In this document: in pieces, positions 3,658-30,804 of the stretch
Layout of the letters: every line of letters begins with the position of its first letter
Position numbering within the stretch: the stretch's first letter is position 1
Source: Candidatus Schekmanbacteria bacterium
GTDB lineage: Bacteria; CSSED10-310; JACPHN01
Assembly: GCA_016188575.1 (NCBI GenBank)
Contig: JACPHN010000268.1
Coordinates: forward strand, 916-64,915
DNA: 64,000 nt
Direction: 5' to 3'
Program-made: the position numbers and the translations under genes
Notes under the pieces: generated by a model
Seen by the model: only the letters and a program-made list of their open reading frames with translations
Databases searched by the model: none
Told to the model about the DNA's origin: nothing

Positions 3658-5107
3658 GAACGCCCCGGTCGGCCGCCGGCTCCGGCTGCGGTTGCCGGCT
3701 CACCGCCCGAGTCGCCGCAACCAGCGCGATGAGCAGGTAGGGGAACCAGCTCAGCACGAAGCCGCCTGCCAGGCCACACGCCAGAAAACCCCACAGCGAG
3801 GCGTGCAGCGCGAAGGCGAGCGGGGCGATCAGGTGCGCGTTTCGCCCGCCCCCCACGCCGCCCACACCGCCCACACCGCCCAGCCCGGCGCGCTCGCCGC
3901 CCGCGCGGCCCCGCCGCGCCAGGCGGCCCGTGCCGACCAGCGCCGCCGCCAGCATCCCGGCAAACGGCACGAACCCCGCCAGACCCGTCTCGGCAAGCGC
4001 CTGAACCAGCGTGTTGTGGCTGTGCAGCCAGCCGTTGGACGGCGCGTCCGCCGGCGCATACAGCGGCCAGCCAAGCATGGAGCAACCCAGCCCGACCCCG
4101 GTCAACGGCCGATCCGCGAACATCTCCAGCCCCACGCGAATCGTCCACAGCCGTTCCTGAACCGTCGTATCCGCCCGCAACCCGGAAAACCCCTCGTCGC
4201 GCGTCCACAGCCGGTCTGCGAACGCCAGGCAGACGATCCCCCCGGCAACCGCCAGGACCCACACGGAGAGCTTGCGCGAGCGCAGCACGCTCAGCCCGAT
4301 CACCACCGCCAGCGCCAGCAGCCCGCCGCGCGAAAACGTCACGAAGATCGCCGGCAGGTAGATCGCCGCGACGCCATACAGGGCCGCGCGCCGCGGCAAG
4401 CTGCCGTCGCGCGCCAGGTACAGCGCCAGCGGCAGGAGAATGACCAGACTGTAGGCGAGCTCGTTGGGGTTTTCGAAAATCCCGATCCAGCCGGCGCGGG
4501 ACCCCTCTACAAGCTGACCGGTCGCGTAGTGCTGCAAGGTGCCGAGGGCGGGAAACAAGCCCCCGACGACCATCACGGTCGCGATGCCGCGGAGGCGTCC
4601 GAGATCCGTGGCGACATTCAGCACGAGCAAGGACACGGCGGCCATCTTTGCCAGATCCGCGAGCTGCTCGGCGGCATACCCCGGCCACAGCGCGCCGGCG
4701 ACCGACAGCGCGGCGGCGGCGACGAAGCCGAGCAACAGGTAGCTTTCCGGCCACACCAGGCGGAACGCACGTTCCGCCACCACCAGCTCGACGGCCAGCA
4801 CGACGAGCGCCAGCAACGCCACCGCCTGCGCCGGCCGCACCGCTTCCAGCGCCGGGACCAGCAGCGCCGCATTGGAGTAGAGCAGGGCCAAAAAGAGCAG
4901 CACGAGCCAGTAGGACAGGCGCCCGCGACGGGCGCCGTGCCGCCGGTCGCTCCCCAGCGGCCCCTCCACCTCACCTCCCCGCGCTTGCGGGGGGCGGCCT
5001 CCAAGCTCTCTCTCTCCCCCCGCTTGCCGGGGAAGGAAGGCAGCGGGGTATGATCGCAGTGGTCGCGTGGCCGCGTCCTGCCGATATTTGACACCGCTTG
5101 CCGTCAT
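3650..5107 (-). CDS. O-antigen ligase / polymerase family protein (Wzy_C; exosortase-associated O-glycosylation ligase type)
   Basis: Multi-TM protein carrying the ligase-family motif (…WLHSHNTLVQALAETGLAG…) in a large periplasmic loop. ATG at 5107 forms an ATGA overlap with the wecB stop. The first ~60 codons are low-complexity and coincide with a GC-rich palindromic repeat, so the true start may be further downstream (~4930). A Gly-rich GGVGGVGGVGGG loop is encoded by a 9-bp tandem repeat. Confidence 0.7.
   Translation of the reverse strand: MTASGVKYRQDAATRPLRSYPAAFLPRQAGGERELGGRPPQARGGEVEGPLGSDRRHGARRGRLSYWLVLLFLALLYSNAALLVPALEAVRPAQAVALLALVVLAVELVVAERAFRLVWPESYLLLGFVAAAALSVAGALWPGYAAEQLADLAKMAAVSLLVLNVATDLGRLRGIATVMVVGGLFPALGTLQHYATGQLVEGSRAGWIGIFENPNELAYSLVILLPLALYLARDGSLPRRAALYGVAAIYLPAIFVTFSRGGLLALAVVIGLSVLRSRKLSVWVLAVAGGIVCLAFADRLWTRDEGFSGLRADTTVQERLWTIRVGLEMFADRPLTGVGLGCSMLGWPLYAPADAPSNGWLHSHNTLVQALAETGLAGFVPFAGMLAAALVGTGRLARRGRAGGERAGLGGVGGVGGVGGGRNAHLIAPLAFALHASLWGFLACGLAGGFVLSWFPYLLIALVAATRAVSRQPQPEPAADRGVHE
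4961..5048. repeat. GC-rich imperfect-palindromic dispersed repeat, copy A (two adjacent units in opposite orientation)
   Basis: 4961-4994 reads cccctccacctcacctccccgcgcttgcgggggg and 5011-5048 reads ctctccccccgcttgccggggaaggaaggcagcgggg. Both share the ccccccgc(N4-8)ggaggtgaggtgggg core with copies at 8786, 12426 and 22447. Confidence 0.6.
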
Positions 5108-6267
5108 GCCCGCACTCCCGGCTCCCGAGCGCGCACCTGTCTGCTGCGCACGCCGCGGTACAGCTCCCGGATCTCGGTGCGGTGCTCGTATAGCGCGCTC
5201 ACGATGCGTTCGGCGGCGTGGCCGTCCCACTTTTCGGGGGTCCGCCGGAGCTTCGGCGGGCCCGACAAGATGGCCCGGGCGCTTTCGAGAATGAGGCCGC
5301 CGTCGAAGCCGACCAGCTCGTTGGTGCCCAGGGTCACGGTGATGGGCCGTTCCGTGTTTTCGCGCAGCGTCAGACAGGGCACCCGCAGCATGGTGGATTC
5401 CTCCTGAACGCCGCCGGAATCGGTCATCACGAATCGGCAATCGCGGAGCAGTCGGATGAAGTCGACGTAGTTGAGCGGCGGGATCCTGCGCACGTGGTCG
5501 AGACTTGCGGTCAGCCCGAGACCGCCAAGCTGGGCCGCCGTGCGCGGATGCACCGGAAAGACGATGGGGACGCGTTTGCCGAGCTCTTCTATGATCGCCG
5601 CCAGGTGCGCAAGGCGGCGGGGATCGTCGACGTTCGCGGGGCGGTGCAGTGTGAGCATGGCGTAGTCGCCGTCCTCGAGCTCGAGCCGACTGTGCACGTC
5701 GGACGACGCGATGCTCGGCCACGACCGCCGGAGCGTGTCGGCAAGCACGTTGCCGGTAAAGAAGATCTTCTCGGCGGCGATCCCTTCCTGGCGCAGATTG
5801 GTGATGGCCTGGGGTTCCGTGACGAAGAGGTAATCGGCGATGGCGTCGGTCAGGACGCGGTTGATCTCCTCGGGCATCTCGCGGTCGAAGCTGCGCAGGC
5901 CCGCCTCGACGTGTGCCACCGGGATGCCGAGGCGCGTGGCCGTCAAGGCCGCCGCGAACGTCGAGGCCACGTCGCCGACCACCAGCACCAGGTCGGGGGG
6001 AACGGCCTCCAGATAGTCCTCCAGGCCCTCGAGCAGGCGCGCGGTCTGGTGGCCGGGTGAGCCGGAACCGACGCCGAGGTGGACATCGGGCTCGGGAATG
6101 TGCAGGCCGCGGAAAAAAGAGCTGGAGAGCGACTCGTCGTAGTGCTGGCCAGTGTGGACCAGACGGGGAGCGATGCCCCGATGGCTGGTCATGGCGTCCA
6201 TGAGCGGCGCGATCTTGACGAAGTTTGGCCGGCAACCGACGACACTGACGATGCTCAACGCGTCCAT
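5104..6267 (-). CDS. wecB: UDP-N-acetylglucosamine 2-epimerase (non-hydrolysing)
   Basis: 388-aa protein MDALSIVSVVGCRPNFVKIAPL…HTGQHYD…DSGGVQEE, the characteristic WecB/MnaA family signature. ATG at 6267 (cat 6265-6267); stop at 5104-5106. Confidence 0.85.
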   Translation of the reverse strand: MDALSIVSVVGCRPNFVKIAPLMDAMTSHRGIAPRLVHTGQHYDESLSSSFFRGLHIPEPDVHLGVGSGSPGHQTARLLEGLEDYLEAVPPDLVLVVGDVASTFAAALTATRLGIPVAHVEAGLRSFDREMPEEINRVLTDAIADYLFVTEPQAITNLRQEGIAAEKIFFTGNVLADTLRRSWPSIASSDVHSRLELEDGDYAMLTLHRPANVDDPRRLAHLAAIIEELGKRVPIVFPVHPRTAAQLGGLGLTASLDHVRRIPPLNYVDFIRLLRDCRFVMTDSGGVQEESTMLRVPCLTLRENTERPITVTLGTNELVGFDGGLILESARAILSGPPKLRRTPEKWDGHAAERIVSALYEHRTEIRELYRGVRSRQVRAREPGVRA

Positions 6268-7544
6268 AGCTCGGTCCTCCTGAGGACTGCGTGCGTCGTT
6301 TCGGCCAGGGGTCGACTCTCTGCCAGACCGGCCGAATCGGTGGACGAGGTCATTGTGAGTGACTGCGTCGCAGCGCCCCCCGCCGCAAGCGGGGGGAGGC
6401 AAGGCAGGGGGTCCTGGCGAACGGGCGCTTGATCCAGGTCCGCCGGTCGCTCGGCGTGGCGGTCTGAGCAGGCGCGCAGAACCTCGAAAATGCCGTTGAT
6501 CTGAGCGCTCATGACCGCGCCCGAGAACTGCCCGTCCGCGCCCTTGCAGCAGTTTTCCCACAGGTGTTTGCGCGGCACGGTAAGCTGCGGGAACGCGGCG
6601 TGGCGGTGCCGGCAGGTGGTACAGGCGTGGGCATAGCCGGCCGCCGCGACGGCCTCGACGTCCGCGGCGCTGAACCGGCCGGCGGGGTAGGCGAAGCAGT
6701 CGACGCCGTGGCCGAGCTCGGCGGCGAGCTCCTGGCGCGACTCCGCAAGCTCCCGCCGCACGCGCGCGCGTGATTCGAGCGGCAGGATGATGTGGGTTTG
6801 CGTGTGGGAACCAATGGTGACCCCGGCGCGGTCGAGCGCACGGATGGCCGGCCAGTCCAGGATGCGCAGCTCGTCGAGGTCGCTCTCGTCGACGCCGACT
6901 GCGGACTCCAGCGCCGCGACGAGCTCGCCGAGAGCGGCGCAGGTGACCCGGGCGCAGAGCAGCTCGGTGAGGGTCGCCGCCGACCCGGATCCCGCGGGCA
7001 CCGCCCCAAGGAGCACCTCCGGCGACACGCCGAGTTCCCGCAGCGCCGCAAGCGACAAACAACCGCCTTTCCCCCACCGCGCCGCCGCGGTGTGGAGCAG
7101 CCGGTAGAGGCGGTCGTGCAGCGGAATGCCCGCGCCGCCCGCCAGGTCGGTCACGACGAACACGGTCGCCGGGACGCCGAGCGCGCGGAGGACCGGCAAG
7201 CCGTGCTCGGCCACGTCGCGGTAGCCGTCGTCGAAGGTGACGGCGGCGACGGGGGCGGCGCCTGCCTGATCCGCCCCCTGGTGCGCCGCCGCGAGCTCGT
7301 CCAGCGCGACGAAGCGATGGGAACGCCCCACCCAGCGCAGTTGCCGGGCGAGCATGTCCTGGGTGATCTGCATCGCCGGCATGGCGTGCGCTTCGGACTG
7401 CATCCGCTGCACGACGCGATGGTAGCACAGCACCAGTGGTCGATAGCGCCGCCGCGACACCGCGCCGATTGCCTCCGCGAGGCCCAACGCGTGCAGGCTG
7501 CGCGCCACTGTGCTCTTTATCGTGCGCCGCCAGGGTGCGCTCAT
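6255..7544 (-). CDS. Polysaccharide deacetylase (NodB-homology domain) with a ~150-aa Cys-rich C-terminal extension
   Basis: N-terminal …LVLCYHRVV… and …VTFDDGYRD… motifs are typical of PF01522 deacetylases (PgaB/IcaB-like). ATG at 7544 gives an ATGA overlap with the upstream FemAB-like gene stop. 429 aa. Confidence 0.7.
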   Translation of the reverse strand: MSAPWRRTIKSTVARSLHALGLAEAIGAVSRRRYRPLVLCYHRVVQRMQSEAHAMPAMQITQDMLARQLRWVGRSHRFVALDELAAAHQGADQAGAAPVAAVTFDDGYRDVAEHGLPVLRALGVPATVFVVTDLAGGAGIPLHDRLYRLLHTAAARWGKGGCLSLAALRELGVSPEVLLGAVPAGSGSAATLTELLCARVTCAALGELVAALESAVGVDESDLDELRILDWPAIRALDRAGVTIGSHTQTHIILPLESRARVRRELAESRQELAAELGHGVDCFAYPAGRFSAADVEAVAAAGYAHACTTCRHRHAAFPQLTVPRKHLWENCCKGADGQFSGAVMSAQINGIFEVLRACSDRHAERPADLDQAPVRQDPLPCLPPLAAGGAATQSLTMTSSTDSAGLAESRPLAETTHAVLRRTELWTR

Positions 7545-8755
7545 GGCCGTCCCTCGCGCTGCCGGCGCGCGAGCGCCCGGTCAAGCAGCTTCCGCGCCAT
7601 CCTGCGCGCCCGCCGCTTGAGCTCGCCGGCGCTCCGGCGCAGGCGCCCGCTCATGCCGGGCGGGTAAAGGCGCAAGCATTCGAGCGTCCGCCGCTCTCCC
7701 GCCCACAGATACTTGTAGGGCTCCTCACCGTGAAGAAAGTCGAATTCGGTCACGCCCTCTTCCATGCAGTGCCGGATGACCAGCCCCGCCATGACCAGGC
7801 CGACCCCGCGATCCGCGAGCGCGGGGTCAAAACCGGCCTGGTAATAGAGAAACCTGTGCCCAAAGCGGAACCCGTACACGGCGGCCGCGGGACGCCCGTC
7901 CAGACGCATGAGGAACAGGCGCAACCAGCCCCGTTCCAGCGCCTCCCGGCTCAGCTCCTCATGGAAGTCGCGCAGACTTCGGGTGTGAAAGGCATCGGAG
8001 CCGCCGCGCTCTTGCCAGCGTTTGAAGTGCAGCACCAGCAGATCCTCGAGCGCCTCACGGCGTTCCTGGTCGGTGCCCGCCAGCGCGAAGGAAACCGCGT
8101 AACGCTGCTGCAGCTTGCGGCAGCGGGCGCGGAAGTTCTGCCGATGCCGCGGCCCGAGCGAGGCGATGTAGTCTTCGAACGTCGGCTGCTCGAGGCGGAC
8201 AATGGGGCAGACGTTGGTGGTTGTCGCCGACTGGTGCCATCCCCGCCCGACCAGCCGGGCGGCCAGCCGGCGCGCGAACGATTCTCCGGCAGCGAGCTGC
8301 CCGAGCACCAGCGCTCGGCGCCGCACGGTCACGTGTTTCGCGAGCGCCTCCAGCACCTCCTCTTCGCACCCGTCGCGGACGATGATGTCGAGGTAGTCCG
8401 AGCCGACGCTCCCGGTGCCCAGCAGCTCGAGCGGCGAGAAGGGCCAGCGCTTTCTCATCAGCGGCGCCAGGGCCACCAGCTCCTCGCGACGCCACAGCGC
8501 GATCAGGCGCATGCAGCGCCCCTCGGACAGGTGCTGCCACCACGCCGACATCCACTCCCAGGTCAGGAAGAGCTCCCGGCTCTTGCTATTCTCAAGCAGA
8601 TCGTGCCAGTCGTGGTACAGCCGCAAGAAGGCCAGGCGGCTGCCGATACGTTCCGCCACCAGCCCGCCGGGGGGACTGCTCCGATTCGCCACGAAGGCGG
8701 CTCTGACCTGTTCCGCTGCGAGGATCGGCGGGATATCTACGTTGGCAACGCTCAT
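7541..8755 (-). CDS. FemAB/CelD-like GNAT acyltransferase (PEP-CTERM-locus FemAB-related type)
   Basis: 404-aa protein from MSVANVDIPPILAAEQ…. It is a paralogue of the gene at 10173-11375 (conserved …FLMRLDGRPAAAVYGFRFGHRFLYYQAGFDP… block). Start at 8755 (cat 8753-8755), preceded by GGAAGGGAG 5 nt upstream. The longer stop-to-stop ORF (to 8977) runs through an intergenic palindromic repeat and is rejected. Confidence 0.65.
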   Translation of the reverse strand: MSVANVDIPPILAAEQVRAAFVANRSSPPGGLVAERIGSRLAFLRLYHDWHDLLENSKSRELFLTWEWMSAWWQHLSEGRCMRLIALWRREELVALAPLMRKRWPFSPLELLGTGSVGSDYLDIIVRDGCEEEVLEALAKHVTVRRRALVLGQLAAGESFARRLAARLVGRGWHQSATTTNVCPIVRLEQPTFEDYIASLGPRHRQNFRARCRKLQQRYAVSFALAGTDQERREALEDLLVLHFKRWQERGGSDAFHTRSLRDFHEELSREALERGWLRLFLMRLDGRPAAAVYGFRFGHRFLYYQAGFDPALADRGVGLVMAGLVIRHCMEEGVTEFDFLHGEEPYKYLWAGERRTLECLRLYPPGMSGRLRRSAGELKRRARRMARKLLDRALARRQREGRP

Positions 8756-8785
8756 GGCGACTCCCTTCCTGAATCCACTACTTTC

Positions 8786-8819
8786 CACGCCTCCCCCCGC
8801 TTGTGGAGGTGAGGTGGGG
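8786..8819. repeat. GC-rich imperfect-palindromic dispersed repeat, copy B (intergenic)
   Basis: cacgcctccccccgcttgtggaggtgaggtgggg. A C-rich arm pairs with a G-rich arm (ggaggtgaggtgggg is the reverse complement of ccccacctcacctcc). Confidence 0.6.
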
Positions 8820-8973
8820 TGGAATGCTCCCCTCTGTGGATCCTGAGTAAGGTGGCCCCGCCGAGCTCTTCGAGCAACGGTCCCCCCAGCCTCCGGGAGA
8901 GGGGCCTCGGAAGTGTAGTAGAGGAACCGGCTTCCGAGCTCATTGGGGCCACCTATGTAAACACGTGCGGTGC

Positions 8974-10176
8974 TCATGCCGGCTTCGCCTCCGGAGCGAG
9001 CAGCCGGAGACCGCGCGTGCGATGCGTGTCGTCCGCATGCCAGCGGTGCAAACCGAGCATGCGAATCTGTTTGGCGATGTGCTCGATGACCTCCAGCGTC
9101 ACGTACTGGTGAATGGGGATCTCGAGGAGGTGCTCGCGAAGAAAGCGGACGGCGGGCGAGATCTCCGTGAGCGACGGGTCACCGACGTTCCAGAACTGGA
9201 CGGTCTGGATGCCCGCTGCCTCCAGCGCCGCCGCGGCCGCCGCCTTGTCGGGAACGAGCAGGGGAAAGAAGAGCGGACAGACGCCGTCGTCGATGGTGCT
9301 GCGCAGCAGCGGCGCCTGGCCATCCAGAAGCTGCACCAGGAGCTGAAAGTTCGCTCGCCGCCGCGGCCGGATCTCGGCGTAGGGCAGGCGCTCGAGGATG
9401 CGCCGCGACAGGTCGGAAAGCGCGATGTCGGCGACCGAGCGATCGAAGCCCGCATCGCCGACGGGAATCCGCGGCCCCCACGTCGCGCTCAGCAGGCGGC
9501 CGGTAGCGCGTTTCGCCGCCGCCAGCACCTGGCCCGCGCCGCCGGCCCGGCTGCGAAACCACTCCACCAGCAGCTCGCTCGCCCTGCCCGCGGTCGACAG
9601 CCGGTCACAAGGGCGCAACGGCATGGCCGCGAGCCCCGGAATCGGCCAGCGGTTCTGTGCCAGGATCGCGCCGTTGGGAACCGGTAGCGTCTTGTACAGG
9701 CAGAACACCGAGAAGTCCCCAAACGTGCCGAGCGGCTGTCCCTCCAGCTCGCTCAAGAGCGCCAGAGCACAATCCTCCACCAGCACGAGGTCGCGCTCCC
9801 GGCAAATCTCCGCGAGCTCCCGGATCGGCTGCGGCCAGCCGATGTAGTGGATCGATAGCAGCGCCCGGGCACCCGACCGCGCGAGCCGCGAGACCTGGTC
9901 CAGATCCGGCTGCAGGTGCCGGTCCACGCGGTAGAACCGCAAGCGGGCACCTGCCGCCAGAATCGCCTTGATCTCATTACCGTGGTGGTAATCCGGAACG
10001 AGAACGGTCTCGTCCGGCCGCAACATGAGTTGCGAAAACAGATGGTAGAGCGCGTTGCGCGCGCGGTACCGGTAGATGACGTCCGGACTGCCCAGCGGGA
10101 AGGGCCTGGGAGCAGCGGACGGCGGCGACAGGAAGAGGCGCGGATCGAGACCTGGCCCCGCGGATGCGTACATCAT
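8974..10176 (-). CDS. DegT/DnrJ/EryC1/StrS-family PLP-dependent sugar aminotransferase
   Basis: 400-aa protein from MMYASAGPGL… with the fold-type I aminotransferase architecture shared by WbpE/ArnB-type enzymes. Start at the double ATG 10176/10173, abutting the stop of the upstream FemAB-like gene (10173). The upstream 50 codons of the ORF are low-complexity. Confidence 0.7.
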   Translation of the reverse strand: MMYASAGPGLDPRLFLSPPSAAPRPFPLGSPDVIYRYRARNALYHLFSQLMLRPDETVLVPDYHHGNEIKAILAAGARLRFYRVDRHLQPDLDQVSRLARSGARALLSIHYIGWPQPIRELAEICRERDLVLVEDCALALLSELEGQPLGTFGDFSVFCLYKTLPVPNGAILAQNRWPIPGLAAMPLRPCDRLSTAGRASELLVEWFRSRAGGAGQVLAAAKRATGRLLSATWGPRIPVGDAGFDRSVADIALSDLSRRILERLPYAEIRPRRRANFQLLVQLLDGQAPLLRSTIDDGVCPLFFPLLVPDKAAAAAALEAAGIQTVQFWNVGDPSLTEISPAVRFLREHLLEIPIHQYVTLEVIEHIAKQIRMLGLHRWHADDTHRTRGLRLLAPEAKPA

Positions 10177-11375
10177 GCCTGGGTCCTCCTCATTGCATGG
10201 TTCAAGAGCGCACGTGCCTCGCTCATCGGGCGATAAAGCCGACTCGCGCGCAGCCGCGGCAGGATGTGGAACTTGAGCTGGCGGACCGCGCGGCTGCGCC
10301 AGCCGTGCGGGAAGAGAAACAGCCATTCATGGCGGCGCGTCGTCGCCGTCCACTCCCGCTTCCACGGCTCGTCGTCGCCGAGAAAGTCGAGCTCGCTCAA
10401 CCCGCGCTCGTAGCAGTGCTTGAGCACGTGAAAAACCAGAAGGTTGGTCGGCGAATACTGCCGGTACAGTGGGTCGAAGCCCGTCTTGACCAGGAAAAAA
10501 CGACCGCCGTACTCGAGCGCGAAGGCGAAGGCGATGCGCCGCCCGCCGGCCGTGAGAAAACAGAGGCGGAGCCAGCCGTGGCGCGCCGCCTCGGGGACGA
10601 GCTGGGCATAGAACTGCCGGCAGCTCTCAGTCGACGCGATCGCGGTGCCCGCGTCCTGCTTCCACGCGGCGCCCTCGATCTGGATGCCTTCCGCGAGCGC
10701 GCTTTCAACTTCGGAACCGGAGGTGACGATCTCCATGTCCAGGCTGGCGCTGCGCATGAGGCGGCCCAGGCGGTTGCGCAGATTGGCGCGGTGTTTGGCG
10801 GAGAGCGACCGCAGGTAGCCGTCGAAGGTCCCTTCCAGCTCCAGGTACGGAGCGTCGGCGGCGTGCCATAGCTCGCCGGCGACCGCGTCCGCGCGGGCGA
10901 GGGCCGGAAGTCTGCGCAGCGTCGGCGAGTCCGCGGGGAGCTGGCAGAGGGTCACGTAGTCCAGCTCGTCGAACATCTCGGTCACCTGCTGCCAGAGGGC
11001 CAGGTAGACGCGGTCGCTGCGCTCGCCGGCGAGATCGAAGCGAGAGGTGTGGGCATTGGCGAGAAACTCGAGCGTGACGGTCCTGAGCCCGTAGACGCGG
11101 CGCACCGACAGCATCATGGGGGCGACGGCGACAAGCTCGGTGCCGTCGCGGAAAACGAAAACCCGCAGCGCGTGTCCCGAGCCGAAGCTGTCCCACCAGC
11201 AACTGACCCAGGCGTGAGTATTGAAGGGATGATCGCCAGGTGAGCGGCGGGTCAGCGCGGACCATTCGGGTGCGAGCGCCGCCAGCCCGGCGCTGCTCTG
11301 CACCACCTCGACCGCGAGCCGGCCGCGCCGCGGCGCCAGCCGTTCAGTCGCTATCTCAAGCACGATCGCGCTCAT
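10173..11375 (-). CDS. FemAB/CelD-like GNAT acyltransferase, second paralogue
   Basis: 400-aa protein MSAIVLEIATERL… containing …GWLRLCFLTAGGRRIAFAFALEYGGRFFLVKTGFDP… (Acetyltransf_6-like). ATG at 11375 makes an ATGA overlap with the GT2 stop. Confidence 0.7.
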   Translation of the reverse strand: MSAIVLEIATERLAPRRGRLAVEVVQSSAGLAALAPEWSALTRRSPGDHPFNTHAWVSCWWDSFGSGHALRVFVFRDGTELVAVAPMMLSVRRVYGLRTVTLEFLANAHTSRFDLAGERSDRVYLALWQQVTEMFDELDYVTLCQLPADSPTLRRLPALARADAVAGELWHAADAPYLELEGTFDGYLRSLSAKHRANLRNRLGRLMRSASLDMEIVTSGSEVESALAEGIQIEGAAWKQDAGTAIASTESCRQFYAQLVPEAARHGWLRLCFLTAGGRRIAFAFALEYGGRFFLVKTGFDPLYRQYSPTNLLVFHVLKHCYERGLSELDFLGDDEPWKREWTATTRRHEWLFLFPHGWRSRAVRQLKFHILPRLRASRLYRPMSEARALLNHAMRRTQA

Positions 11376-12799
11376 AGTCGGAGCTCCCGAGGTTTCGCAT
11401 GGAGTAATCGCGGCCGCGCGGGGCGCGGCCGCCGCGGATCGCCGGCAGCCGGCGCCACCGCCACCGCCGCGCCTGACGCCTGCCAGAGATCCTGAGGATG
11501 GGTCACGTAGCGGTAGAGGCCGAGCACGGCGGCCCAGTTCAGCATGACGAAGTGGTAGGGAACGGACAGCAGCCGATCAAGCAGCCGCTGGGGTCCGCCG
11601 CCGCCGCCGGACAGGTGCGCGCGGCGATCGCCGCGCAAGCGATAGGCCCCGACCACCGCGAGCAGGTAGGCAGCGGTCTGCGCCACCAGGAATGCGGTAT
11701 AGAGCTCGCCCCGCAGCATCCAGCTCGACGCGTACAGCGCCGGCAGGAGAAAGGCGACGACGAGGCGCCCTACCTTGTGCGAGGCGAACTGCAGGAAGAT
11801 CGGATCACGCCACGGCATCAGCAGCTCGGGCATGCGCGCCAGGAGCTGGTAGTTTCCGGCGAGCGTGCGCACCTTGCGGCGCAGCTCCGCGCTCGACGGC
11901 TGCTCGCGGTCGTAGGCGCGCGCGGCCGGGTCGAGGACGGCGCGCTTGCCGCGCAGAACGGCCCCCATGGGAATCGCGACGTCGTCGAGAATGGTGTCGG
12001 CGGGCAGCGGTGTGTACAGGTCCCGGCGCACGGCATGCAGCGCGCCGGTGGCGCCCGGCAGCGAGTGAATGTCGCTCTCCAGTGCGCGCAGCCACCGGTC
12101 GTAGCGCCAGTACAGGCCGATGCCGTCGCCGGCCACGTTGCCGTTTTCGTCCAGCACGATGACCTCACCGCTCACCGCGCCCACCTCGGGGTCGTGGAAG
12201 TTGGCGATGAGCTCGCGCACGGCGGCGCTTTCCAGCCGCTGCCGGGCATCGGCAAAGACGATGACGTCGCCGCGAGCCGCCGCCACGCCGCGATTCAACG
12301 CCCCCGCCTTGCCCTCGTGGCGCGGCGACCGCACTACAGTGAGGCGCGGTGCCGGCCACGCGCGGCGCGGCGACCGCAGCGGCGACCACGGGTGGTCGCC
12401 TAATCCCAGAAACGCCCGGTGCGGCCCCCTACCCCTCCCCCCGCGCGCGGGGGCAGGTGTGGTGGGGCGTCTTCGCGATGCGTCCCAGGCGCTCGTGAGC
12501 CGCCGGTGGGCGCTCGCCCAACGTTCCACCACGCGATCCGTGCCGTCGCTCGGACCATCGAGCGCGATGACGATCTCCAGCTTGCTCGGCGGGTAAACCT
12601 GGCGCAGGCAGTCCTCGAGCTTGTCCACGATCGCCTCGCGCTCGTTGTAGGCGGCGATGACGATGCTCACCGACAGGCGACAGGGTTGCTTGTCCACCGG
12701 CGCCAGGCCATACCGCCGCCGGGCGAGCAAGTAGAGCGGATAGCCCACATACACGTAGGCGATGATCGCCAAACTGCTCCAAAAAACGACCTGCGCCAC
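11372..12799 (-). CDS. Family-2 glycosyltransferase (membrane GT2) carrying an in-frame ~51-codon insertion derived from a palindromic repeat
   Basis: The protein has an N-terminal TM helix, then SVSIVIAAYNE…LEIVIALDGPSDGT…[insertion]…GKAGALNRGV…DVIVFADAR… (DxD-type GT2 core), then C-terminal TM helices. GTG start at 12799, with GGAGG 8 nt upstream. Confidence 0.75.
   Translation of the reverse strand: MAQVVFWSSLAIIAYVYVGYPLYLLARRRYGLAPVDKQPCRLSVSIVIAAYNEREAIVDKLEDCLRQVYPPSKLEIVIALDGPSDGTDRVVERWASAHRRLTSAWDASRRRPTTPAPARGGRGRGPHRAFLGLGDHPWSPLRSPRRAWPAPRLTVVRSPRHEGKAGALNRGVAAARGDVIVFADARQRLESAAVRELIANFHDPEVGAVSGEVIVLDENGNVAGDGIGLYWRYDRWLRALESDIHSLPGATGALHAVRRDLYTPLPADTILDDVAIPMGAVLRGKRAVLDPAARAYDREQPSSAELRRKVRTLAGNYQLLARMPELLMPWRDPIFLQFASHKVGRLVVAFLLPALYASSWMLRGELYTAFLVAQTAAYLLAVVGAYRLRGDRRAHLSGGGGGPQRLLDRLLSVPYHFVMLNWAAVLGLYRYVTHPQDLWQASGAAVAVAPAAGDPRRPRPARPRLLHAKPRELRL
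12346..12499. repeat. In-frame repeat-derived insertion inside the GT2 gene (contains palindromic repeat copy C at 12426-12467 and a second palindrome ggcgaccacccgtggtcgcc)
   Basis: Codons 101-152 of the GT2 (TSAWDASRRRPTTPAPARGGRGRGPHRAFLGLGDHPWSPLRSPRRAWPAPRL) lie between the DGxxDGT and GKAxALN motifs, which are normally ~25 residues apart. The DNA carries cccctacccctccccccgcgcgcgggggcaggtgtggtgggg plus the perfect palindrome ggcgaccac-cc-gtggtcgcc. Confidence 0.6.
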
Positions 12800-12802
12800 G
12801 GC

Positions 12803-14152
12803 CTACAGCCTCCTGAGGTTCGACGCCTCGATGCCGCGCGTCGCGTTGCGGGTATCGAACACCAGCGGCGCCTGTCGGGTAATCTCCTCGTAGTCGAAGC
12901 CCGAATGGTCCGTCAGGATCAGCGCGAGGTGGCAGAGCTCCAGGAGCTGCGGCGTTGGCCGTTTGGACTCCAGAAGCTCGTCGCCGATGGTGATGGAGTC
13001 CACAAACGGGTCGCTATAGGAGACCGTCGCCCCGCGCTCCCTGAGCAGCTTGATGACCTCGAGAGCCGGCGATTCCCGGGTGTCGCAAACGTCCTTCTTG
13101 TAGGCCACGCCGAGCACGTGGATCCAGGTGCGGCTCAGGGGTCTGCCCGCCTCGCTCAAGATCTCCATCACCCGCATCACCACGTAACGGGGCATGCCGC
13201 GATTGATCTTGTCGGCAAGGTGAATGAGCTCCGGCACAAACCCATCGATCGTGGCCTTCCACTGCAAGTAGATGGGATCGACGGGGATGCAGTGCCCGCC
13301 GAGACCGGGACCCGGGAAAAACGGCATGAACCCGAACGGCTTGGTCGCCGCCGCGTCGATCACCTCCCACACGTCGATGTCCATGTGCTTGCACATCTGC
13401 GCCAGCTCGTTGACCAGCGCGATGTTTACGGCGCGGAAGGTGTTCTCCAGCAGCTTGACCATTTCGGCCACGCGCGTGTTGGAGACTTCCATCACGCCGC
13501 CCACGACCTGGCTGTACAGCGACGCCGCCAACCGCCGGCACCGGGGCGTCACCCCGGCGACGATCTTCGCGATGTTCTCGGTCTTGAACCTGGCATTGCC
13601 CGGGTCGACCCGTTCCGGCGAGTATGCCAGGAAGAAGTCCTCTCCGACCTTCAATCCGTGCGCCTGCAAGCGCGGCAGGACGATGTCCTCGGTGCTTCCC
13701 GGGTAGGTCGTGCTCTCCAGGATCACGAGCTGTCCGGGGCGCAGATGCGCCGCGACCTCTTCCGCCGCAGACAGCACGAAGGTCAGGTCCGGGTCGCGGC
13801 TCTTGCGCAACGGCGTGGGCACGCAGATGATGAGCACGTCCATATCCGGTAAGGCCGAAAAGTCGGTCGTCGCGGCAAACTTGCCTTCGTGGAGCGCCTG
13901 CATCACCCGGCGGCTGTGCACGTCGGTGATCTCGGAAACGCCATTCACCAGCCCGTCGACGCGCTCGGGGTTGATGTCGAAGCCGGTGGCGCGGAACCCG
14001 GCATCGGCACAAGCCATCGCCAGGGGTAGACCGACGTAGCCGAGGCCGAGCACACCGACGCGGGCGGTGCGCGTCTGCAAGCGGCCGGCGAGGGTTTCAA
14101 ACGAGTTGGTGACCTGAGTAGTTGGAACCTGCAGGACAGCGGTAGTGCTCAC
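12803..14152 (-). CDS. UDP-N-acetyl-D-glucosamine / -mannosamine 6-dehydrogenase (nucleotide-sugar dehydrogenase family, WbpA/WecC-like)
   Basis: 449-aa protein with an N-terminal Rossmann motif (VGVLGLGYVGLPLAMA), a catalytic-Cys region (…GGHCIPVDP…) and a UDPG_MGDP_dh C-terminal domain. GTG start at 14152 with AGGAGA 7 nt upstream. Confidence 0.85.
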   Translation of the reverse strand: MSTTAVLQVPTTQVTNSFETLAGRLQTRTARVGVLGLGYVGLPLAMACADAGFRATGFDINPERVDGLVNGVSEITDVHSRRVMQALHEGKFAATTDFSALPDMDVLIICVPTPLRKSRDPDLTFVLSAAEEVAAHLRPGQLVILESTTYPGSTEDIVLPRLQAHGLKVGEDFFLAYSPERVDPGNARFKTENIAKIVAGVTPRCRRLAASLYSQVVGGVMEVSNTRVAEMVKLLENTFRAVNIALVNELAQMCKHMDIDVWEVIDAAATKPFGFMPFFPGPGLGGHCIPVDPIYLQWKATIDGFVPELIHLADKINRGMPRYVVMRVMEILSEAGRPLSRTWIHVLGVAYKKDVCDTRESPALEVIKLLRERGATVSYSDPFVDSITIGDELLESKRPTPQLLELCHLALILTDHSGFDYEEITRQAPLVFDTRNATRGIEASNLRRL

Positions 14153-14163
14153 TGGTGCTTCTC

Positions 14164-16014: not shown

Positions 16015-16018
16015 GGTC

Positions 16019-17074
16019 CTACCTCGCGATCAGGGTCAGAGGGGGAGTCGGCGATCTCTTCACCGCAAGCTCGGGACGCTGGCGGCGGGCAAGCAGGAGC
16101 AGGAGCTCACCGAGGCGATCGCAATCGTGTTTCACCTCGTCGCAGTCCTCGCGCGACAGCAGGTTGGCGGCCAGCGGCGCCGTTCCCATCTGGCCGATCT
16201 CGCGCACGTCGTTGCGCACCGGCGCGGCGCCGAGCGCGGCGTAGCGGGCGCGCCGATCGTCCGGAATGGCCCCCGAGCTCAAGATACAGACGTCGATCAG
16301 GCCTCCTTCCAGGTATTCGGAGAGCACGCGCAGGTGGTCGGCGGCCGTGAAACCGTCCGTCTCGCCGGGCTGGGTCATGAGATTGCAAACGTACACCTTG
16401 AGCGCCGACGACAGGCGAATGGCGTCGGCAACGCCGTCCACGAGCAGGTTGGGCACGACGCTGGTGTACAGGCTGCCCGGCCCGAGCACGATCAGGTCGG
16501 AAAAGACCAGGGATTGCAGCACCCCACCCGACGCCGGCGGCGTGCAGGGTTCGAGCCACACCCGCGTGATCCGGCCGCGTTGCAGCGGGATCTGCGCCTC
16601 GCCGCGGACCACGCTGCCGTCGGCGAAGGCGGCGCAGAGGGTCACCGGGCTATCGGTGACGGGGAGCACGCGACCGCTGGCGTGCAGCAGCCCCGATGCC
16701 TGTTGGCTCGCCTTCGCCAGGCTGCCGTGCTCCTCGCAGTAGGCGGCGAGGATGAGGTTGCCGACAACCTGTCCCTGCAGCCCGTTGCCGCCGCGGAACC
16801 GGTACTGGAACAGGTCGCATAGCGGCGGCTCGCTGTCGGACAGCGCCGCCATGCAGTTGCGGATATCACCCACCGCGGGGATGCCGAGGTGTCTGCGAAG
16901 CCGACCCGTGGAGCCGCCGTTGTCAGCGGTGGTCACCACGGCCGAAATTTGCACGTCCCAGTCCGCGCCGCCGGCCCCCTGCTTGATCGCTGCGCGCTTC
17001 AAGCCTCGCAATACGGTTGACAATCCGTGTCCGCCGCCGACACCGACAATCCTGACGATGGTATTGGTTTTCAT
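16019..17074 (-). CDS. YvcK/GlmR-type gluconeogenesis factor (UPF0052, CofD-like fold)
   Basis: 351-aa protein MKTNTIVRIVGVGGGHGLS…VVTTADNGGSTGRLR…, the signature of the YvcK/UPF0052 family. Lies 4 nt upstream of glmS on the same strand. Confidence 0.8.
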   Translation of the reverse strand: MKTNTIVRIVGVGGGHGLSTVLRGLKRAAIKQGAGGADWDVQISAVVTTADNGGSTGRLRRHLGIPAVGDIRNCMAALSDSEPPLCDLFQYRFRGGNGLQGQVVGNLILAAYCEEHGSLAKASQQASGLLHASGRVLPVTDSPVTLCAAFADGSVVRGEAQIPLQRGRITRVWLEPCTPPASGGVLQSLVFSDLIVLGPGSLYTSVVPNLLVDGVADAIRLSSALKVYVCNLMTQPGETDGFTAADHLRVLSEYLEGGLIDVCILSSGAIPDDRRARYAALGAAPVRNDVREIGQMGTAPLAANLLSREDCDEVKHDCDRLGELLLLLARRQRPELAVKRSPTPPLTLIAR

Positions 17075-17077
17075 TTG

Positions 17078-18172
17078 TTACCCGTCCTGTCGATGATCCA
17101 AGCCGAAGATGACAACTTTGATGGTGCGAAGAAGAATGAAGACATCAAACCACACAGAAGCGTGCTTCGCGTAGTACAGGTCGTATTGCAGCTTCTCGTA
17201 GGCATCTTCAATCGAGTTGCCATAGTCGTAGCTGACCTGTGCCCAACCGGTAATACCCGGTTTGATGTAGTGTCTGAGGTCGTAGTAGGGGATCTGTTCT
17301 CCCAACATGCGCACGAAGCAGGGGCGCTCGGGCCTGGGTCCGACGAAGGTCATGTCGCCGCGCAGGACGTTGATGACCTGCGGGACCTCGTCGAGGTGCA
17401 GGCGGCGCAGGATGCGGCCGACCCGGGTAACGCGGTCATCGACGTCGCGCGCCCACATCGGTCCGGTATCCTGCTCAGCATCATGGCGCATGGAGCGGAA
17501 CTTGTACATCATGAAGGTGTCGCCATCCTTGCCGACGCGGTCCTGCGCGAACAGCACGGGGCCGCGGGATTCGAGCTTGATCGCCAGAGCGATCAGGAGC
17601 AGAATGGGCGCGGCCAGGACGAGGAGGGCGGCGGCGCAGACGATGTCGAGCCAGCGTTTGAGGCGGTCATGGCGAGCTGAGAAATGAAAGCCGTCGCAGA
17701 AGATCAGCCAGTCCGGCCGCACCGCATCGAGCCACACCTTGTGATGGCGGTGCTCGTAGAAGTCCGCCGCTTCTTCGATCTCGATGCCCAGCAGCTTGCC
17801 TTCGATCAGCGTCGAGGCGATGTCGGCAGCGCCATAGGCGTTGGGTTCGGTAATGACGATGCGCGAGACGCGCCCGGCGCGAATCAGGTCGCGAAGGCGT
17901 TCAGAGCTCAGCTCTTCGCTCGCGCCGCTACTGCGCGCGGAACGCATGGCCGTGGGCGTTCGCCCGTTGCCGTTGCGGTAGGCCGAGGTGCTCAGCATCG
18001 CGCCCTCGCCGCGGCCGTTGCGGGCGGCCTCCGCGGCAGGCGGCGCGGCGCCATCGAGCTCGCGGTGCAGCGTCGCCGCCAGGGCGCCGTTGCCGAGAAT
18101 AACGATGCCGGCCGAAGGGCGCTCGCGAGTCGGGTGCCAGAATTCGGTTCGGGGCACTTCAGTTCTTATCAT
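17078..18172 (-). CDS. Undecaprenyl-phosphate sugar phosphotransferase (bacterial sugar transferase, WbaP/EpsB type with N-terminal CoA-binding-like domain)
   Basis: 365-aa protein from MIRTEVPRTEF… with a C-terminal …PVLFAQDRVGKDGDTFMMYKFRSM…DEVPQVINVLRGDMTFVGPRPERP… block (Bac_transf). ATG at 18172 overlaps the Wzc-like gene end by 14 nt. The longer ORF upstream is out-of-frame noise. Confidence 0.8.
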   Translation of the reverse strand: MIRTEVPRTEFWHPTRERPSAGIVILGNGALAATLHRELDGAAPPAAEAARNGRGEGAMLSTSAYRNGNGRTPTAMRSARSSGASEELSSERLRDLIRAGRVSRIVITEPNAYGAADIASTLIEGKLLGIEIEEAADFYEHRHHKVWLDAVRPDWLIFCDGFHFSARHDRLKRWLDIVCAAALLVLAAPILLLIALAIKLESRGPVLFAQDRVGKDGDTFMMYKFRSMRHDAEQDTGPMWARDVDDRVTRVGRILRRLHLDEVPQVINVLRGDMTFVGPRPERPCFVRMLGEQIPYYDLRHYIKPGITGWAQVSYDYGNSIEDAYEKLQYDLYYAKHASVWFDVFILLRTIKVVIFGLDHRQDG

Positions 18173-20267: not shown

Positions 20268-21561
20268 AAGGCAACACCGTGCGAAGCCGGTCGACTTCCT
20301 CGTCCCAGGCGCGGGACGCGGTGTCCGAGGCTGTCAGGTTGAGGCGCAAGCCGAGCGCGAAGCGCCGTGCGGTCAGGGCCGCAAGCTCCGGGGTGGAAAG
20401 CTGCTGATCGAGGAGCTGCGCGTCCAGGAAGGCGTCGAGGTTGTTGCGCAGGCGCACGTTCAGGTGGGCTCGCGAGCTGAGGGTAGTAAGCTCGCCGCCG
20501 GTGCTGAGCGCGGCGCGCGCCCGCTGCAGCCGCGCCTGGTAGCGAAGGCGGCTGCCGAGACGGCCCGCGAAGGCCAGGCTATAGATGCGCGCCGTGGCAC
20601 TTCCGGAAACGGCGCCGCCATAGGGGTCTGGCGCTCCACCTTCGCCCGCGTCGGGGCCGCTGGACAGACCGGCGCCTTCGAGCGCCAACACTCTGCGGTC
20701 AGCGGCGCCGCTGAGCACGTGGCGGCCGCCGCGGAGCCGCACGGAGGCCTCGACGCCCATCACGATCTCGACCTCTGCCGTGCGCTCGTAGCGCGCCACG
20801 CCGCTGCGGATGCGAGCCGCCAGGGCGGGGCGCGGAGCGAGGGAGCAGGTGGCCTCGACCTGGTGCACCGGCTCCGAGGTCTCGGCGAGGCCGGCGCCGG
20901 CGCCCGCGGCGTCGGTCCGCGTCGCCGCGTACAGATAGGTATAGCCAAGGCCGACGCTCGTCGAGCTCGCGAGCTGCCACGTCAGGCTCAGGTTTCCCGT
21001 TCCCGCGCCCTGATCGATGGGCACGTCGGCGGATTCCAACAGGAGTCGGCCGTGGCTCACACTGGCCTCGAGGCTTGCCGCCAGATCCGTGCGGCGGGTC
21101 AGCTCGTGGCGAGCGCCCACGGCGAGCCGCCCCTGCCAGAATGGGCTGCTGGCTACCGCCAGTAGCGGTTGACCGAGCTCTCTGCCGGCGTCGCGGCTGG
21201 AGAAGACGGAGCCAAATACGGTAAAACCCGCGCGGCCCACGTCGGTCCCATAGCGCAGCCCCGCCTGTTGGCGCGCGGCGAGCACGCGCCCCGTCTCCCG
21301 CACCCACTCCACGTGCGGCTCATAGGCGGCGATCAGCTCGCTCACGGCGCGGCGGTACGACACCAGGACGCTTTGCCGCAATGTCAGGTAGGAGCGGGCT
21401 TCGCCCTCGGGCGTCCGCTCGGACGTGCGGGACTCGTGAGCGACGCTCACCGCCGCGGGCAGCAGCCAACGCGCCGCTGCCCCGGAACCAGTGGGGCTCG
21501 CCAGGGCGGCGAGCATTGCCAGCGTCGCCCCGAGGAACCTCAGCACCGTCGATGTCGTCAT
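20260..21561 (-). CDS. Predicted outer-membrane beta-barrel protein of EPS loci (uncharacterised, signal peptide)
   Basis: 433-aa protein with N-terminal signal peptide MTTSTVLRFLGATLAMLAALASP, then an alternating hydrophobic/polar, Gly/Ala/Ser/Thr/Arg-rich sequence with no TM helices. Sits between the Wza-like and Wzc-like genes. Confidence 0.5.
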   Translation of the reverse strand: MTTSTVLRFLGATLAMLAALASPTGSGAAARWLLPAAVSVAHESRTSERTPEGEARSYLTLRQSVLVSYRRAVSELIAAYEPHVEWVRETGRVLAARQQAGLRYGTDVGRAGFTVFGSVFSSRDAGRELGQPLLAVASSPFWQGRLAVGARHELTRRTDLAASLEASVSHGRLLLESADVPIDQGAGTGNLSLTWQLASSTSVGLGYTYLYAATRTDAAGAGAGLAETSEPVHQVEATCSLAPRPALAARIRSGVARYERTAEVEIVMGVEASVRLRGGRHVLSGAADRRVLALEGAGLSSGPDAGEGGAPDPYGGAVSGSATARIYSLAFAGRLGSRLRYQARLQRARAALSTGGELTTLSSRAHLNVRLRNNLDAFLDAQLLDQQLSTPELAALTARRFALGLRLNLTASDTASRAWDEEVDRLRTVLPYE

Positions 21562-21572
21562 ACCAGAGCTCC

Positions 21573-22175
21573 TCAGCGCACGTAAATGACGTCCGCCGGC
21601 TGGATGTCGAAGGGGTTTTCCGCACCATTGAGCATGGCCTTGATATTCACTGTGATCTTGCGCTCGGCGTCCGATCCCTGGCTGCGGATGACGATGACGC
21701 TCGCGCGGCGCGCGAACTCCGTGAATCCGCCGGCGAGAGCGATGGCGTCGAGCACCGAGAGGCGCTGCCGGACCACGTACCAGTCAGGACGCGTCACCTC
21801 GCCGAAAACGGCGATGCGGTGGCTGTTGATTTCCTTGACCACGACGGTGACGATCGGGTGCTCGATATACTTCTGCAGCCGCCTGGCGATCTCCTCCTGG
21901 AGGTCTTGCGGGATGCGTCCGCTGGCGCGGATCTCGCCTGCGAGGGGCACCGAGAGGTAGCCATCCGGGCGCACGATGACCGTTCGGGAAATGTCGGGCT
22001 CGCGCCAGACGAAGACCTCCACGACGTCCTCGGGTCCCAGGCGGTAGGTGTCTGTGGCGAGGAGCTCGTCTGCGGGCGCCGCATCGTCCGCTCCGGCGGC
22101 GGCGGCGAGGAGCGACGGAGCGGCGAGAGTCAGCGCGAAGAAGAGCGACAAGCAATGGCGTATAAGGAGATACAT
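21573..22175 (-). CDS. Periplasmic polysaccharide export protein (short Wza/Poly_export + SLBB type)
   Basis: 200-aa protein with a signal peptide (MYLLIRHCLSLFFALTLAAPSLLAAAAG) and a …YRLGPEDVVEVFVWREPDISRTVIVRPDGYLSVPLAGEIRASG… Poly_export motif. First gene downstream of the sigma-54 promoter. Confidence 0.75.
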   Translation of the reverse strand: MYLLIRHCLSLFFALTLAAPSLLAAAAGADDAAPADELLATDTYRLGPEDVVEVFVWREPDISRTVIVRPDGYLSVPLAGEIRASGRIPQDLQEEIARRLQKYIEHPIVTVVVKEINSHRIAVFGEVTRPDWYVVRQRLSVLDAIALAGGFTEFARRASVIVIRSQGSDAERKITVNIKAMLNGAENPFDIQPADVIYVR

Positions 22176-22233
22176 AAGAACCGTTTACTCTTTGTTAGAC
22201 CGATGTTGTTTTGCTGGCGTCCGCGGAAGAGCT

Positions 22234-22250
22234 TGCAAGGTCTATGCCAC
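22234..22250 (-). promoter_or_regulatory. Sigma-54 (RpoN) promoter for the EPS operon
   Basis: The minus strand reads G-TGGCAT-AGACC-TTGCA-A. This matches the TGGCAC-N5-TTGCA consensus with correct GG/GC spacing and a single mismatch at a weakly conserved position. Predicted TSS is ~48 nt upstream of the Wza-like ATG. Confidence 0.55.
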
Positions 22251-22297
22251 CGCGAGAGATGCGGCTTGGACGGCCATTTGCCGCGGTTCTGGGGCCG

Positions 22298-22334
22298 TGC
22301 AATGGACCCCCTTCCATGGAAGGGTCGTTCCGCA
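22298..22334. promoter_or_regulatory. Two adjacent inverted repeats ~60-110 bp upstream of the sigma-54 promoter; candidate enhancer (UAS) for the bEBP
   Basis: Perfect 16-bp palindrome CCCTTCCATGGAAGGG (22298-22313), followed by the imperfect GTTCCGCAAGTGGAATG (22318-22334). Both have the TTCC-N4-6-GGAA form. Confidence 0.35.
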
Positions 22335-22446
22335 AGTGGAATGTCGGTTCAACTCTCAGTACAGGTCTCTAGGGACTTGTCCCGGCACAGCATCGGCAGA
22401 CACCTGACAGGGCAGTTGCCAGGGGCACGATCTCCGTCTCCTTCTG

Positions 22447-22525
22447 CCCTCCGTTCCCCCCGCTGGCGAAGGGAGGTGAGGTGGGGGGAGGGCAGGGGTG
22501 GGGGGAGAGCTGGAGGGTGGGGGAG
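22447..22525. repeat. GC-rich imperfect-palindromic dispersed repeat, copy D, followed by a G-rich run
   Basis: ccctccgttccccccgctggcgaagggaggtgaggtgggggg then gagggcaggggtggggggagagctggagggtggggg. Intergenic between the Wza-like gene and the LuxR regulator. Confidence 0.6.
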
Positions 22526-22539
22526 AAACCGCAGCCCGC

Positions 22540-23604: not shown

Positions 23605-23632
23605 TGTCAACGATGGCCGCGCTACTTATCTT
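23605..23632 (+). promoter_or_regulatory. Candidate sigma-70-type promoter for the bEBP gene
   Basis: TTGTCA (23605-23610), 16-bp spacer, TATCTT (23627-23632). This is the only AT-rich patch in the divergent intergenic region. Gene ATG is at 23710, preceded by AGGAGAGGGG. Confidence 0.3.
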
Positions 23633-30665: not shown

Positions 30666-30804
30666 TTGCCGAGCACAACCGGCGCCTGTGTCCTGAATCC
30701 ACCGAGGGCTCGACGTCGATGCGCCTTCCGCGCAGCTTTCAGCCGCACAGGCGGTGGATTGAGATGTGTGGCAGGCCTGGTGCAGAATCAGGGATCAGCA
30801 GACG

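Follow-up and report, generated by a model that had tools for sequence, protein, structure and literature searches.

What are the short, GC-rich, imperfectly palindromic sequences that recur through a 64-kb stretch of Candidatus Schekmanbacteria DNA (contig JACPHN010000268.1, positions 916-64,915; hereafter, the window), and why do they tend to lie at the junctions between genes of a polysaccharide (EPS) cluster? The original prediction took them for a stem-loop repeat resembling repetitive extragenic palindromic (REP) sequences or miniature inverted-repeat transposable elements (MITEs) at gene junctions, and our analysis supports this part of it: the anatomy of the unit fits, the copies lie mostly outside conserved coding sequence, there is an inverted doublet, a further copy lies within an insertion in a glycosyltransferase (GT2) gene, and the corresponding clusters of relatives are empty. 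For these reasons, and because the hairpin is accompanied by a conserved unpaired flank and has look-alikes elsewhere, we prefer, with moderate confidence, an interspersed palindromic element of REP/REPIN-like character, which would spread as DNA and affect mRNA only incidentally, over a regulatory RNA, an operator or a terminator. The family has the appearance of an ordinary 'junk' repeat of the REP type and not of a novel regulatory system.

Seven units at six loci

Motif, repeat and covariance-model searches together locate 7 GC-rich hairpin units at six loci in the window. An earlier count of four copies in 64 kb was, therefore, too low: all four of the loci then named do contain the motif, but those at 6365-6418 and 44924-44977 had been overlooked. 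The units, with their covariance scores, are:

4955-5008, + strand: copy 1a, left half of the inverted doublet, with GGAGGTGAGGTGGAG on the - strand (47 bits)
5002-5055, - strand: copy 1b, right half of the inverted doublet (45.5 bits)
6365-6418, - strand: additional copy, within the 3' tail of a deacetylase open reading frame (ORF) (48 bits)
8779-8833, - strand: copy 2, DegT/FemAB-like spacer (44.7 bits)
12423-12476, - strand: copy 3, within the GT2 glycosyltransferase gene (52.5 bits)
22442-22495, - strand: copy 4, LuxR-type/Wza-like spacer (53.6 bits)
44924-44977, + strand: copy 5, PfkB/sucrose-phosphate synthase spacer, outside the EPS cluster (59.6 bits)
32858-32909, - strand: doubtful degenerate copy, N-terminal linker of a Ser/Thr kinase gene (16 bits, E = 0.12)

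The covariance model, itself derived from the seven units, was applied to the 64 kb with filters off; as this is partly circular, a blastn cross-check was added, in which each copy was compared with the whole window. The best matches were the other copies (E 6e-7 to 5e-3), and background matches were weaker, the strongest having E of about 0.005. At full sensitivity, the model found no other convincing unit in the window: the next match, the doubtful copy at 32858-32909, is probably a chance resemblance, in which only the tail is family-like and a good 3' arm is missing. Core identity between pairs of copies averages 72%.

The GC content of the window is 61-71% (mean ~67%), and low-complexity C-rich and G-rich stretches could, in such a genome, resemble one another by chance; shuffled sequences do fold almost as well as the units, and the 8-mer CCCCCCGC is not enriched by itself, with seven of its eight occurrences falling inside family copies. 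The composite motifs, however, were never reached in shuffles: CCCCCCGC-N2-12-GGNGG has 8 matches in the window versus 0.6 expected, and the G-rich 15-mer GGAGGTGAGGTGGGG, with <=3 mismatches, has 12 versus 2.9 +/- 1.7 in shuffled sequence (0/100 shuffles reach 12). Moreover, the copies are mutual best matches, copies 2 and 4 have identical 15-mers in common, and the family is confined to non-conserved sequence. Chance similarity can hardly account for all of this.

An assembly artefact was also considered and is ruled out, as independent Logan assemblies of run SRR12113422 carry the copies. One Logan contig reproduces window positions 974-8519 with a single mismatch, and a second, corresponding approximately to 8501-12991, encodes the exact 475-aa GT2 protein, including its insertion; every copy covered by these two single-run assemblies (1a, 1b, 6365-6418, 2 and 3) is confirmed. 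Gene calls made independently on the two contigs also agree with the cluster boundaries.

A conserved tail and a ten-base-pair stem

The unit is ~54 nt long and comprises a conserved C-rich tail, CCCCACCTCACC, followed by a hairpin; its consensus, C-rich side first, is ACCCCCCACCTCACCTCCCCCCGC-nAGC-GGGGGGAGGGG. As had been proposed, a C-rich arm pairs with a G-rich arm: the units are imperfect palindromes, and the consensus folds into a 10-bp stem (CCTC-CCCCCG / CGGGGG-GAGG) with a 4-nt loop. Approximately 12 nt on the 5' side of the stem are conserved in sequence and have no consistent pairing partner. Only the hairpin and the C-rich side are strictly conserved; no more than three copies have the outer G-rich GGTGAGGTGGGG. 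A larger shared element surrounding the core was considered and rejected, since similarity between loci stops after ~35-50 nt.

The stem itself is well preserved. Across 18 units, taken from the window and from other genomes, the 10-bp helix is paired in 91.6% of cells, a level that 0/500 shuffles reach and that compares with 57-71% in slid controls; within this set, the position of the single U-A pair moves on both arms together. The hairpins had further been described as very stable RNA structures. In absolute terms this holds, with single units folding at -20 to -32 kcal/mol, but dinucleotide shuffles fold nearly as well (z-scores of only -0.6 to -2.7), since a run of C will pair with any run of G that follows it; as no more than three of the seven units exceed >97% of shuffles, we reject the description of the hairpins as exceptionally stable. 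Both strands fold about equally, with no clear strand asymmetry, and the ratio of G-U to A-C cells (10 versus 5) gives no significant indication of a function at the RNA level. The convergent units 1a and 1b together form a single long hairpin (4950-5060) of -59 kcal/mol (z = -1.9); theirs is the only inverted doublet (4955-5055) among the six loci, the remainder being singletons.

Folding energies of this size lend some weight to a rival explanation, in which the units are RNA elements of the polysaccharide operon, selected by the host to tune the expression of neighbouring genes by blocking exonucleases, offering RNase cleavage sites or masking ribosome-binding sites, and in which repetition would, thus, signify function. 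The modest z-scores, the equal folding of the two strands and the small G-U excess count against it, as does the absence of a matching Rfam family: with Rfam 15, the window gave no match at the gathering score, and a related locus searched at a relaxed E-value returned only sub-threshold miRNA noise. A literature search with the sequence strings retrieved unrelated eukaryotic papers only, and the core strings searched are absent from the main text of the REP catalogue paper (PMC3733652).

Positions of the units relative to genes

The genes against which the units are placed are as follows:

140-22175, - strand: co-directional polysaccharide (EPS) cluster of the exosortase-associated type, whose members also include asparagine synthase, flippase, second GNAT, UDP-glucose dehydrogenase, GlmS, CofD-like, sugar transferase and chain-length/tyrosine kinase genes
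3650-4969, - strand: O-antigen-ligase gene with a Wzy_C domain (439-aa product in an independent Prodigal call)
5104-6267, - strand: wecB (Epimerase_2, E = 6e-102)
6255-7544, - strand: deacetylase ORF
7541-8755, - strand: FemAB-like GNAT (Acetyltransf_6) gene
8974-10176, - strand: DegT aminotransferase gene
11372-12799, - strand: GT2 glycosyltransferase gene
21573-22175, - strand: Wza-like exporter gene (Poly_export)
22540-23610: LuxR-type response regulator gene, beyond the Wza-like gene
23710-24747: divergent sigma-54 activator gene, beyond the LuxR-type gene

The gene labels given originally to the three junctions (wecB/ligase, aminotransferase/FemAB and Wza/LuxR) are correct, as judged from the Epimerase_2, Wzy_C, DegT, Acetyltransf_6, LuxR-type and Poly_export assignments. 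The accompanying statement, that three copies sit at junctions and one inside a gene, is accurate for those four but omits two loci, one intergenic and the other in the tail of an ORF. In total, four of the six loci are intergenic (wecB/Wzy-ligase, DegT/FemAB-like, LuxR/Wza-like and PfkB/sucrose-phosphate synthase), so that five of the seven units fall within the 5.6% of the window that is outside maximal ORFs (P ~1e-5 to 1e-4, or 0.005-0.02 if 20% of the window is taken as non-coding).

Units 1b and 1a occupy the 134-nt wecB/ligase spacer, 1b lying 48 nt after wecB. Copy 1a is the only unit in which the direction from C-tail to hairpin opposes that of the flanking genes, and it contains, on the - strand, both the GTG start (4969-4967) and the GGAGG (4978-4974) of the ligase gene; in the predicted fold, the GGGGAGG of this gene is base-paired in the copy 1a hairpin. 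The additional copy at 6365-6418 is 97 nt upstream of the wecB ATG (6267), within the last ~60 residues of the deacetylase ORF, which have no counterpart in homologues and lack codon periodicity. The 218-nt DegT/FemAB-like spacer holds copy 2, 23 nt before the ATG at 8755, and also a separate inverted repeat of 19 nt that closely follows the DegT stop codon (8850-8868 / 8936-8954; 84% complementary, arms 67 nt apart).

Copy 4 follows the LuxR-type stop codon by 44 nt and precedes the Wza-like ATG by 266 nt; a G-rich tandem array at this locus (22480-22526; 17-nt period, 2.7 copies) amounts to extra partial copies of its tail. A sigma-54 promoter match with one mismatch, TGGCATAGACCTTGCA (22249-22234, - strand), stands 59 nt upstream of the Wza-like ATG. 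It is the best in the window and the only near-perfect one, and, with a sigma-54 activator gene nearby, it probably serves the polysaccharide operon as its promoter. As copy 4 is located further upstream than this candidate, it is probably outside the EPS transcript; together with the modest z-scores and the lack of clear strand asymmetry, this weakens the original suggestion that the hairpins could be processing or stability elements of the polycistronic EPS transcript. A sigma-70 promoter scan found nothing at the copies.

Copy 5, 22 kb outside the EPS cluster, occupies part of the 123-nt PfkB/sucrose-phosphate-synthase spacer, 55 nt after pfkB and 14 nt upstream of the ATG at 44992. Its left edge was set by comparison with 30712-30783. 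This last segment (- strand) and 44867-44923 (+ strand) constitute a second short repeat family, element B, with 83% identity over 46 nt and ~60 nt alignable; both copies of element B begin just past a stop codon (of the Ser/Thr kinase gene and of pfkB, respectively), and at 44.9 kb element B adjoins copy 5, the similarity ending exactly where copy 5 starts.

The GC-rich stems that follow stop codons, at 44 nt (copy 4), 48 nt (1b) and 55 nt (copy 5), might suggest factor-independent or 'I-shaped' terminators or attenuators of the type common in GC-rich bacteria. No copy, however, is followed by a T/U tract, and a terminator scan reports none; several copies are in mid-operon, where the downstream genes still need to be expressed; and terminators normally have only their structure in common, so that a sequence conserved at every site would be unexpected. 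We consider this explanation quite improbable.

An operator for a dimeric transcription factor, such as the adjacent LuxR-type protein, is marginally less credible still. The core, CCCCCCGC-N4-GCGGGGGG, is palindromic, several genes for the metabolism of sugars and polysaccharides have copies upstream, and regulator genes adjoin copy 4, all of which would suit the co-regulation of polysaccharide and sucrose genes; yet the conserved unit is 54 nt long and asymmetric, with a one-sided tail, most of the copies are inside the operon and away from promoter-like sites, one is in a gene within a foreign insertion, and one locus is an inverted doublet. Moreover, the motif is absent from homologous loci, and other phyla carry the same sequence in unrelated settings, such as that upstream of Azospirillum atpD (see below).

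Placement has more to say for the host-selected RNA elements introduced above: five units are inside the co-directional EPS array, six of the seven have the same orientation with respect to transcription, several lie 14-97 nt upstream of starts, copy 1a pairs the ligase GGAGG, and every EPS spacer of >=40 nt holds a copy. Set against this, copy 3 interrupts a coding sequence, copy 4 is upstream of the likely promoter and copy 5 precedes an unrelated sucrose gene.

An insertion in the GT2 glycosyltransferase gene

Copy 3 is contained in a stretch of 156 nt (52 codons; 12338-12493, - strand) that interrupts the GT2 gene in frame and is a direct sign that at least one unit arrived by insertion. 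A HMMER search of 1.8 billion representatives shows that GT2 homologues, of ~375-395 aa, match in two stretches, between which the protein encoded in the window has ~50 extra residues; in an alignment with 11 homologues, the insert (SAWDAS...APRLT) sits in a loop after the DGxxDGT motif and is missing from all 11. GC content by codon position is 0.71/0.83/0.79 in the insert versus 0.75/0.48/0.87 in the rest of the gene, and codon periodicity is lacking; the insert, therefore, has the look of non-coding DNA that was acquired recently and keeps the reading frame by chance.

In addition to copy 3, the insert holds two unrelated hairpins, one of which is GGCGACCAC-CC-GTGGTCGCC at 12381-12400, and as a whole it folds at -88 kcal/mol; the second hairpin has no other copy in the window. 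The edges of the insert carry an imperfect direct repeat, GCG[G/C]CTCAC (9/10 nt; GCGGCTCAC / GCGCCTCAC). No terminal inverted repeats were found at the ends of 12338-12493, the sole delimited insertion.

In Rickettsia, palindromic elements (RPEs) insert in frame into protein-coding genes. The GT2 insert resembles these 100-150 nt elements in its length, in its reading frame and in leaving the ORF open; it differs in that there is only one case here, its sequence is apparently unrelated and without the CGTC tag, and the retention of GT2 function is putative.

Comparison with other genomes

The host belongs to an uncultured groundwater lineage for which no close relative is available: the proteins tested share only 45-51% identity with their nearest homologues. 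Homologous EPS clusters were, instead, compared from a JGI contig, a JGI/Logan pair and a Rokubacteria metagenome-assembled genome (MAG), 82 kb in total. All three retain the DegT-GNAT-deacetylase-flippase neighbourhood, with genes that overlap or are <=112 nt apart, and none contains a unit at full sensitivity; at the DegT/FemAB junction, the genes of the relatives overlap or are separated by 112 nt, in place of the 218-nt spacer in the window. Given these empty clusters, the repeats were added in this lineage and do not belong to the ancestral form of the locus. The same absence counts further against host-selected RNA elements, which, all evidence considered, we regard as unlikely.

Unrelated GC-rich bacteria do carry near-identical hairpins, CCCACCTCACCTCCCCCGC-N4-GCGGGGGAGG, in their intergenic regions:

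Proteobacteria MAG: three look-alikes at the end of a contig
another MAG: three look-alikes in tandem
Dongia (locus L030): an inverted pair, with the architecture of the 1a/1b doublet, and a single copy
Azospirillum (upstream of atpD), Chelatococcus replicons and Abditibacteriaceae: single copies

The clustered look-alikes (L082 6860-7080, L037 6242-6439 and L030 2785-2890) comprise tandem triplets, the inverted pair and one copy truncated by a contig end. This distribution suggests that the hairpins are multi-copy in other phyla, where they break assemblies. Because the same sequence type is found in other phyla and copy 5 is well outside the EPS cluster, a purely local duplication is disfavoured.

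Relationship to known repeats and a possible route of spread

Several families of small repeats offer partial parallels. MITEs, such as Correia/NEMIS and ERIC, are small non-autonomous insertions that alter the expression of neighbouring genes and add ORF sequence; the GT2 insertion differs from these, as it has no terminal inverted repeats and its target duplication is doubtful. The BIMEs of Escherichia coli and the RIMEs of rhizobia are mosaic intergenic repeats, in which several short palindromic modules stand side by side, as do element B and copy 5, and copy 3 and the other hairpins of the GT2 insert, the likeness here being by layout only. Integron attC sites, too, are imperfect palindromes that separate genes of like orientation, and they function as folded single strands. 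This possibility was considered and set aside: the flanking genes make up a syntenic biosynthetic cluster, not cassettes, there is no integrase gene in the window, and no GTTRRRY core was noticed on reading the sequence.

The closest correspondence is with REP/REPIN sequences. These are stem-loop-forming imperfect palindromes of ~20-40 nt, present in tens to hundreds of copies throughout a genome, with the inverted doublet (REPIN) as the unit that replicates and with a cognate single-copy RAYT gene, usually flanked by REPs. The window family shares with them a short imperfect palindrome having a conserved unpaired sequence at one end, a mostly extragenic location (in operons or past stops), the occurrence of singles and, at one of the six loci, of an inverted doublet, and restriction to particular lineages; it is unlike them in having a ~12-nt C-rich tail in place of GTAG/CGTC, in the divergence of its copies, among which no dominant master sequence is present, and in that no RAYT gene is among the window ORFs scanned. 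REPs themselves combine a hairpin with an unpaired tag, the tetranucleotide GTAG or CGTC standing at one end of the stem (PMC3733652, which also mentions the RPEs), and REP/REPIN elements are mobilized by RAYT transposases of the HUH Y1 type (PMC3116915; PMC3733652).

By analogy, the units may travel as folded single strands, moved by a trans-acting enzyme that would be encoded elsewhere in the genome; a RAYT-type HUH/Y1 transposase, recognizing the hairpin and the adjacent unpaired sequence, provides the precedent. Copies would remain wherever they are tolerated and, once transcribed, would form stable hairpins with by-product effects depending on position. The clearest case would be copy 1a, which supplies the GGAGG and the GTG start of the ligase gene and yet is predicted to base-pair that GGAGG; other copies could slow 3'-to-5' decay of mRNA, an effect that REPs have in E. 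coli operons. At the RNA level, by-products may, thus, include a masked ribosome-binding site at the ligase gene and protected upstream mRNA.

A bolder proposal would make the unit a transposable module for translational control. Its hairpin would join a Shine-Dalgarno sequence, GGAGGUGA, on one strand to a mimic of the 16S rRNA 3'-end, UCACCUCC, on the other, and such a mobile pair might be shared across phyla and could persist inside a protein as an in-frame insert, as in Rickettsia. What it does would vary with orientation: inserted one way, it would furnish the downstream gene with a self-masked ribosome-binding site and a GTG (compare the ligase), and inserted the other way, it would place a decoy for the rRNA tail in the mRNA. 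We regard this proposal as very unlikely to be correct.

A number of observations weigh against a REP/REPIN-like origin. Neither the GTAG nor the CGTC tag occurs on either strand of the consensus ACCCCCCACCTCACCTCCCCCCGC..GCGGGGGGAGGGG, and the window ORFs scanned with Pfam yielded neither a transposase nor a RAYT domain. For both of these reasons, membership in a RAYT-mobilized REP family is not established, and the copy count refers to the 64-kb window only. No two copies are identical (61-81% identity), which gives no indication of recent bursts. It is doubtful that the direct repeat at the GT2 insert is a target duplication: by our own estimate, it is marginally beyond chance, and it would be atypical of IS200/IS605-type enzymes. 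In the genome collections, a loose pattern, CCACCTCACCTCC-N3-12-GCGGGG, has at least 89 matches, which are mostly chance singles, with ~10 real look-alike hairpins among the matches listed; a stricter pattern found a single chance match, in a coding region, in JGI metagenomes, and none in viral contigs. Finally, the distribution in the window is uneven: six of the seven units are within 18 kb, which is not expected under random dispersal, and 3/3 EPS spacers of >=40 nt carry a copy, versus one of nine or ten elsewhere, whereas the common orientation of six of the seven units relative to transcription is a weak point (two-sided P ~0.13; binomial, our own arithmetic). It is the concentration of six units within 18 kb, together with the copy in every sizeable spacer of the cluster, that keeps a functional explanation in play.

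Other features of the window

The gene downstream of copy 5 belongs to a sucrose-metabolism cluster (43903-49533), which encodes a PfkB kinase, a fused sucrose-phosphate synthase/phosphatase and sucrose synthase; the host is presumably non-photosynthetic. The polysaccharide cluster includes a CofD-like gene of the 2-phospho-L-lactate transferase family (16019-17074), an unusual member that is conserved in the Rokubacteria cluster (L096 2166-3287). Two tandem repeats were also observed:

3847-3947, in the Wzy-ligase gene: 9-nt-period array CGCCGCCCA, ~11 copies with 68% matches, encoding a GGVGGVGGVGGG stretch
63725-64000 (and 63626-63739): ~129-132 nt repeat, >=2-3 copies with 93% identity, in a - strand ORF that runs off the window and has no Pfam match; probably a repeated protein module

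Implications

The significance of these findings would lie mainly in annotation and genome evolution, and they open no long-standing question. If the family is indeed a REP/REPIN-like element, its presence would explain why some spacers are unusually long in a polysaccharide operon that is tightly packed elsewhere. It would also account for the 60-residue artificial tail of the deacetylase and the 52-residue insert in the glycosyltransferase, both of which annotators could mistake for protein features. Moreover, REP-like elements without the GTAG/CGTC tag would be extended to an uncultured groundwater lineage, and the sequence type that this lineage has in common with Proteobacteria could be used to find the mobilizing enzyme.

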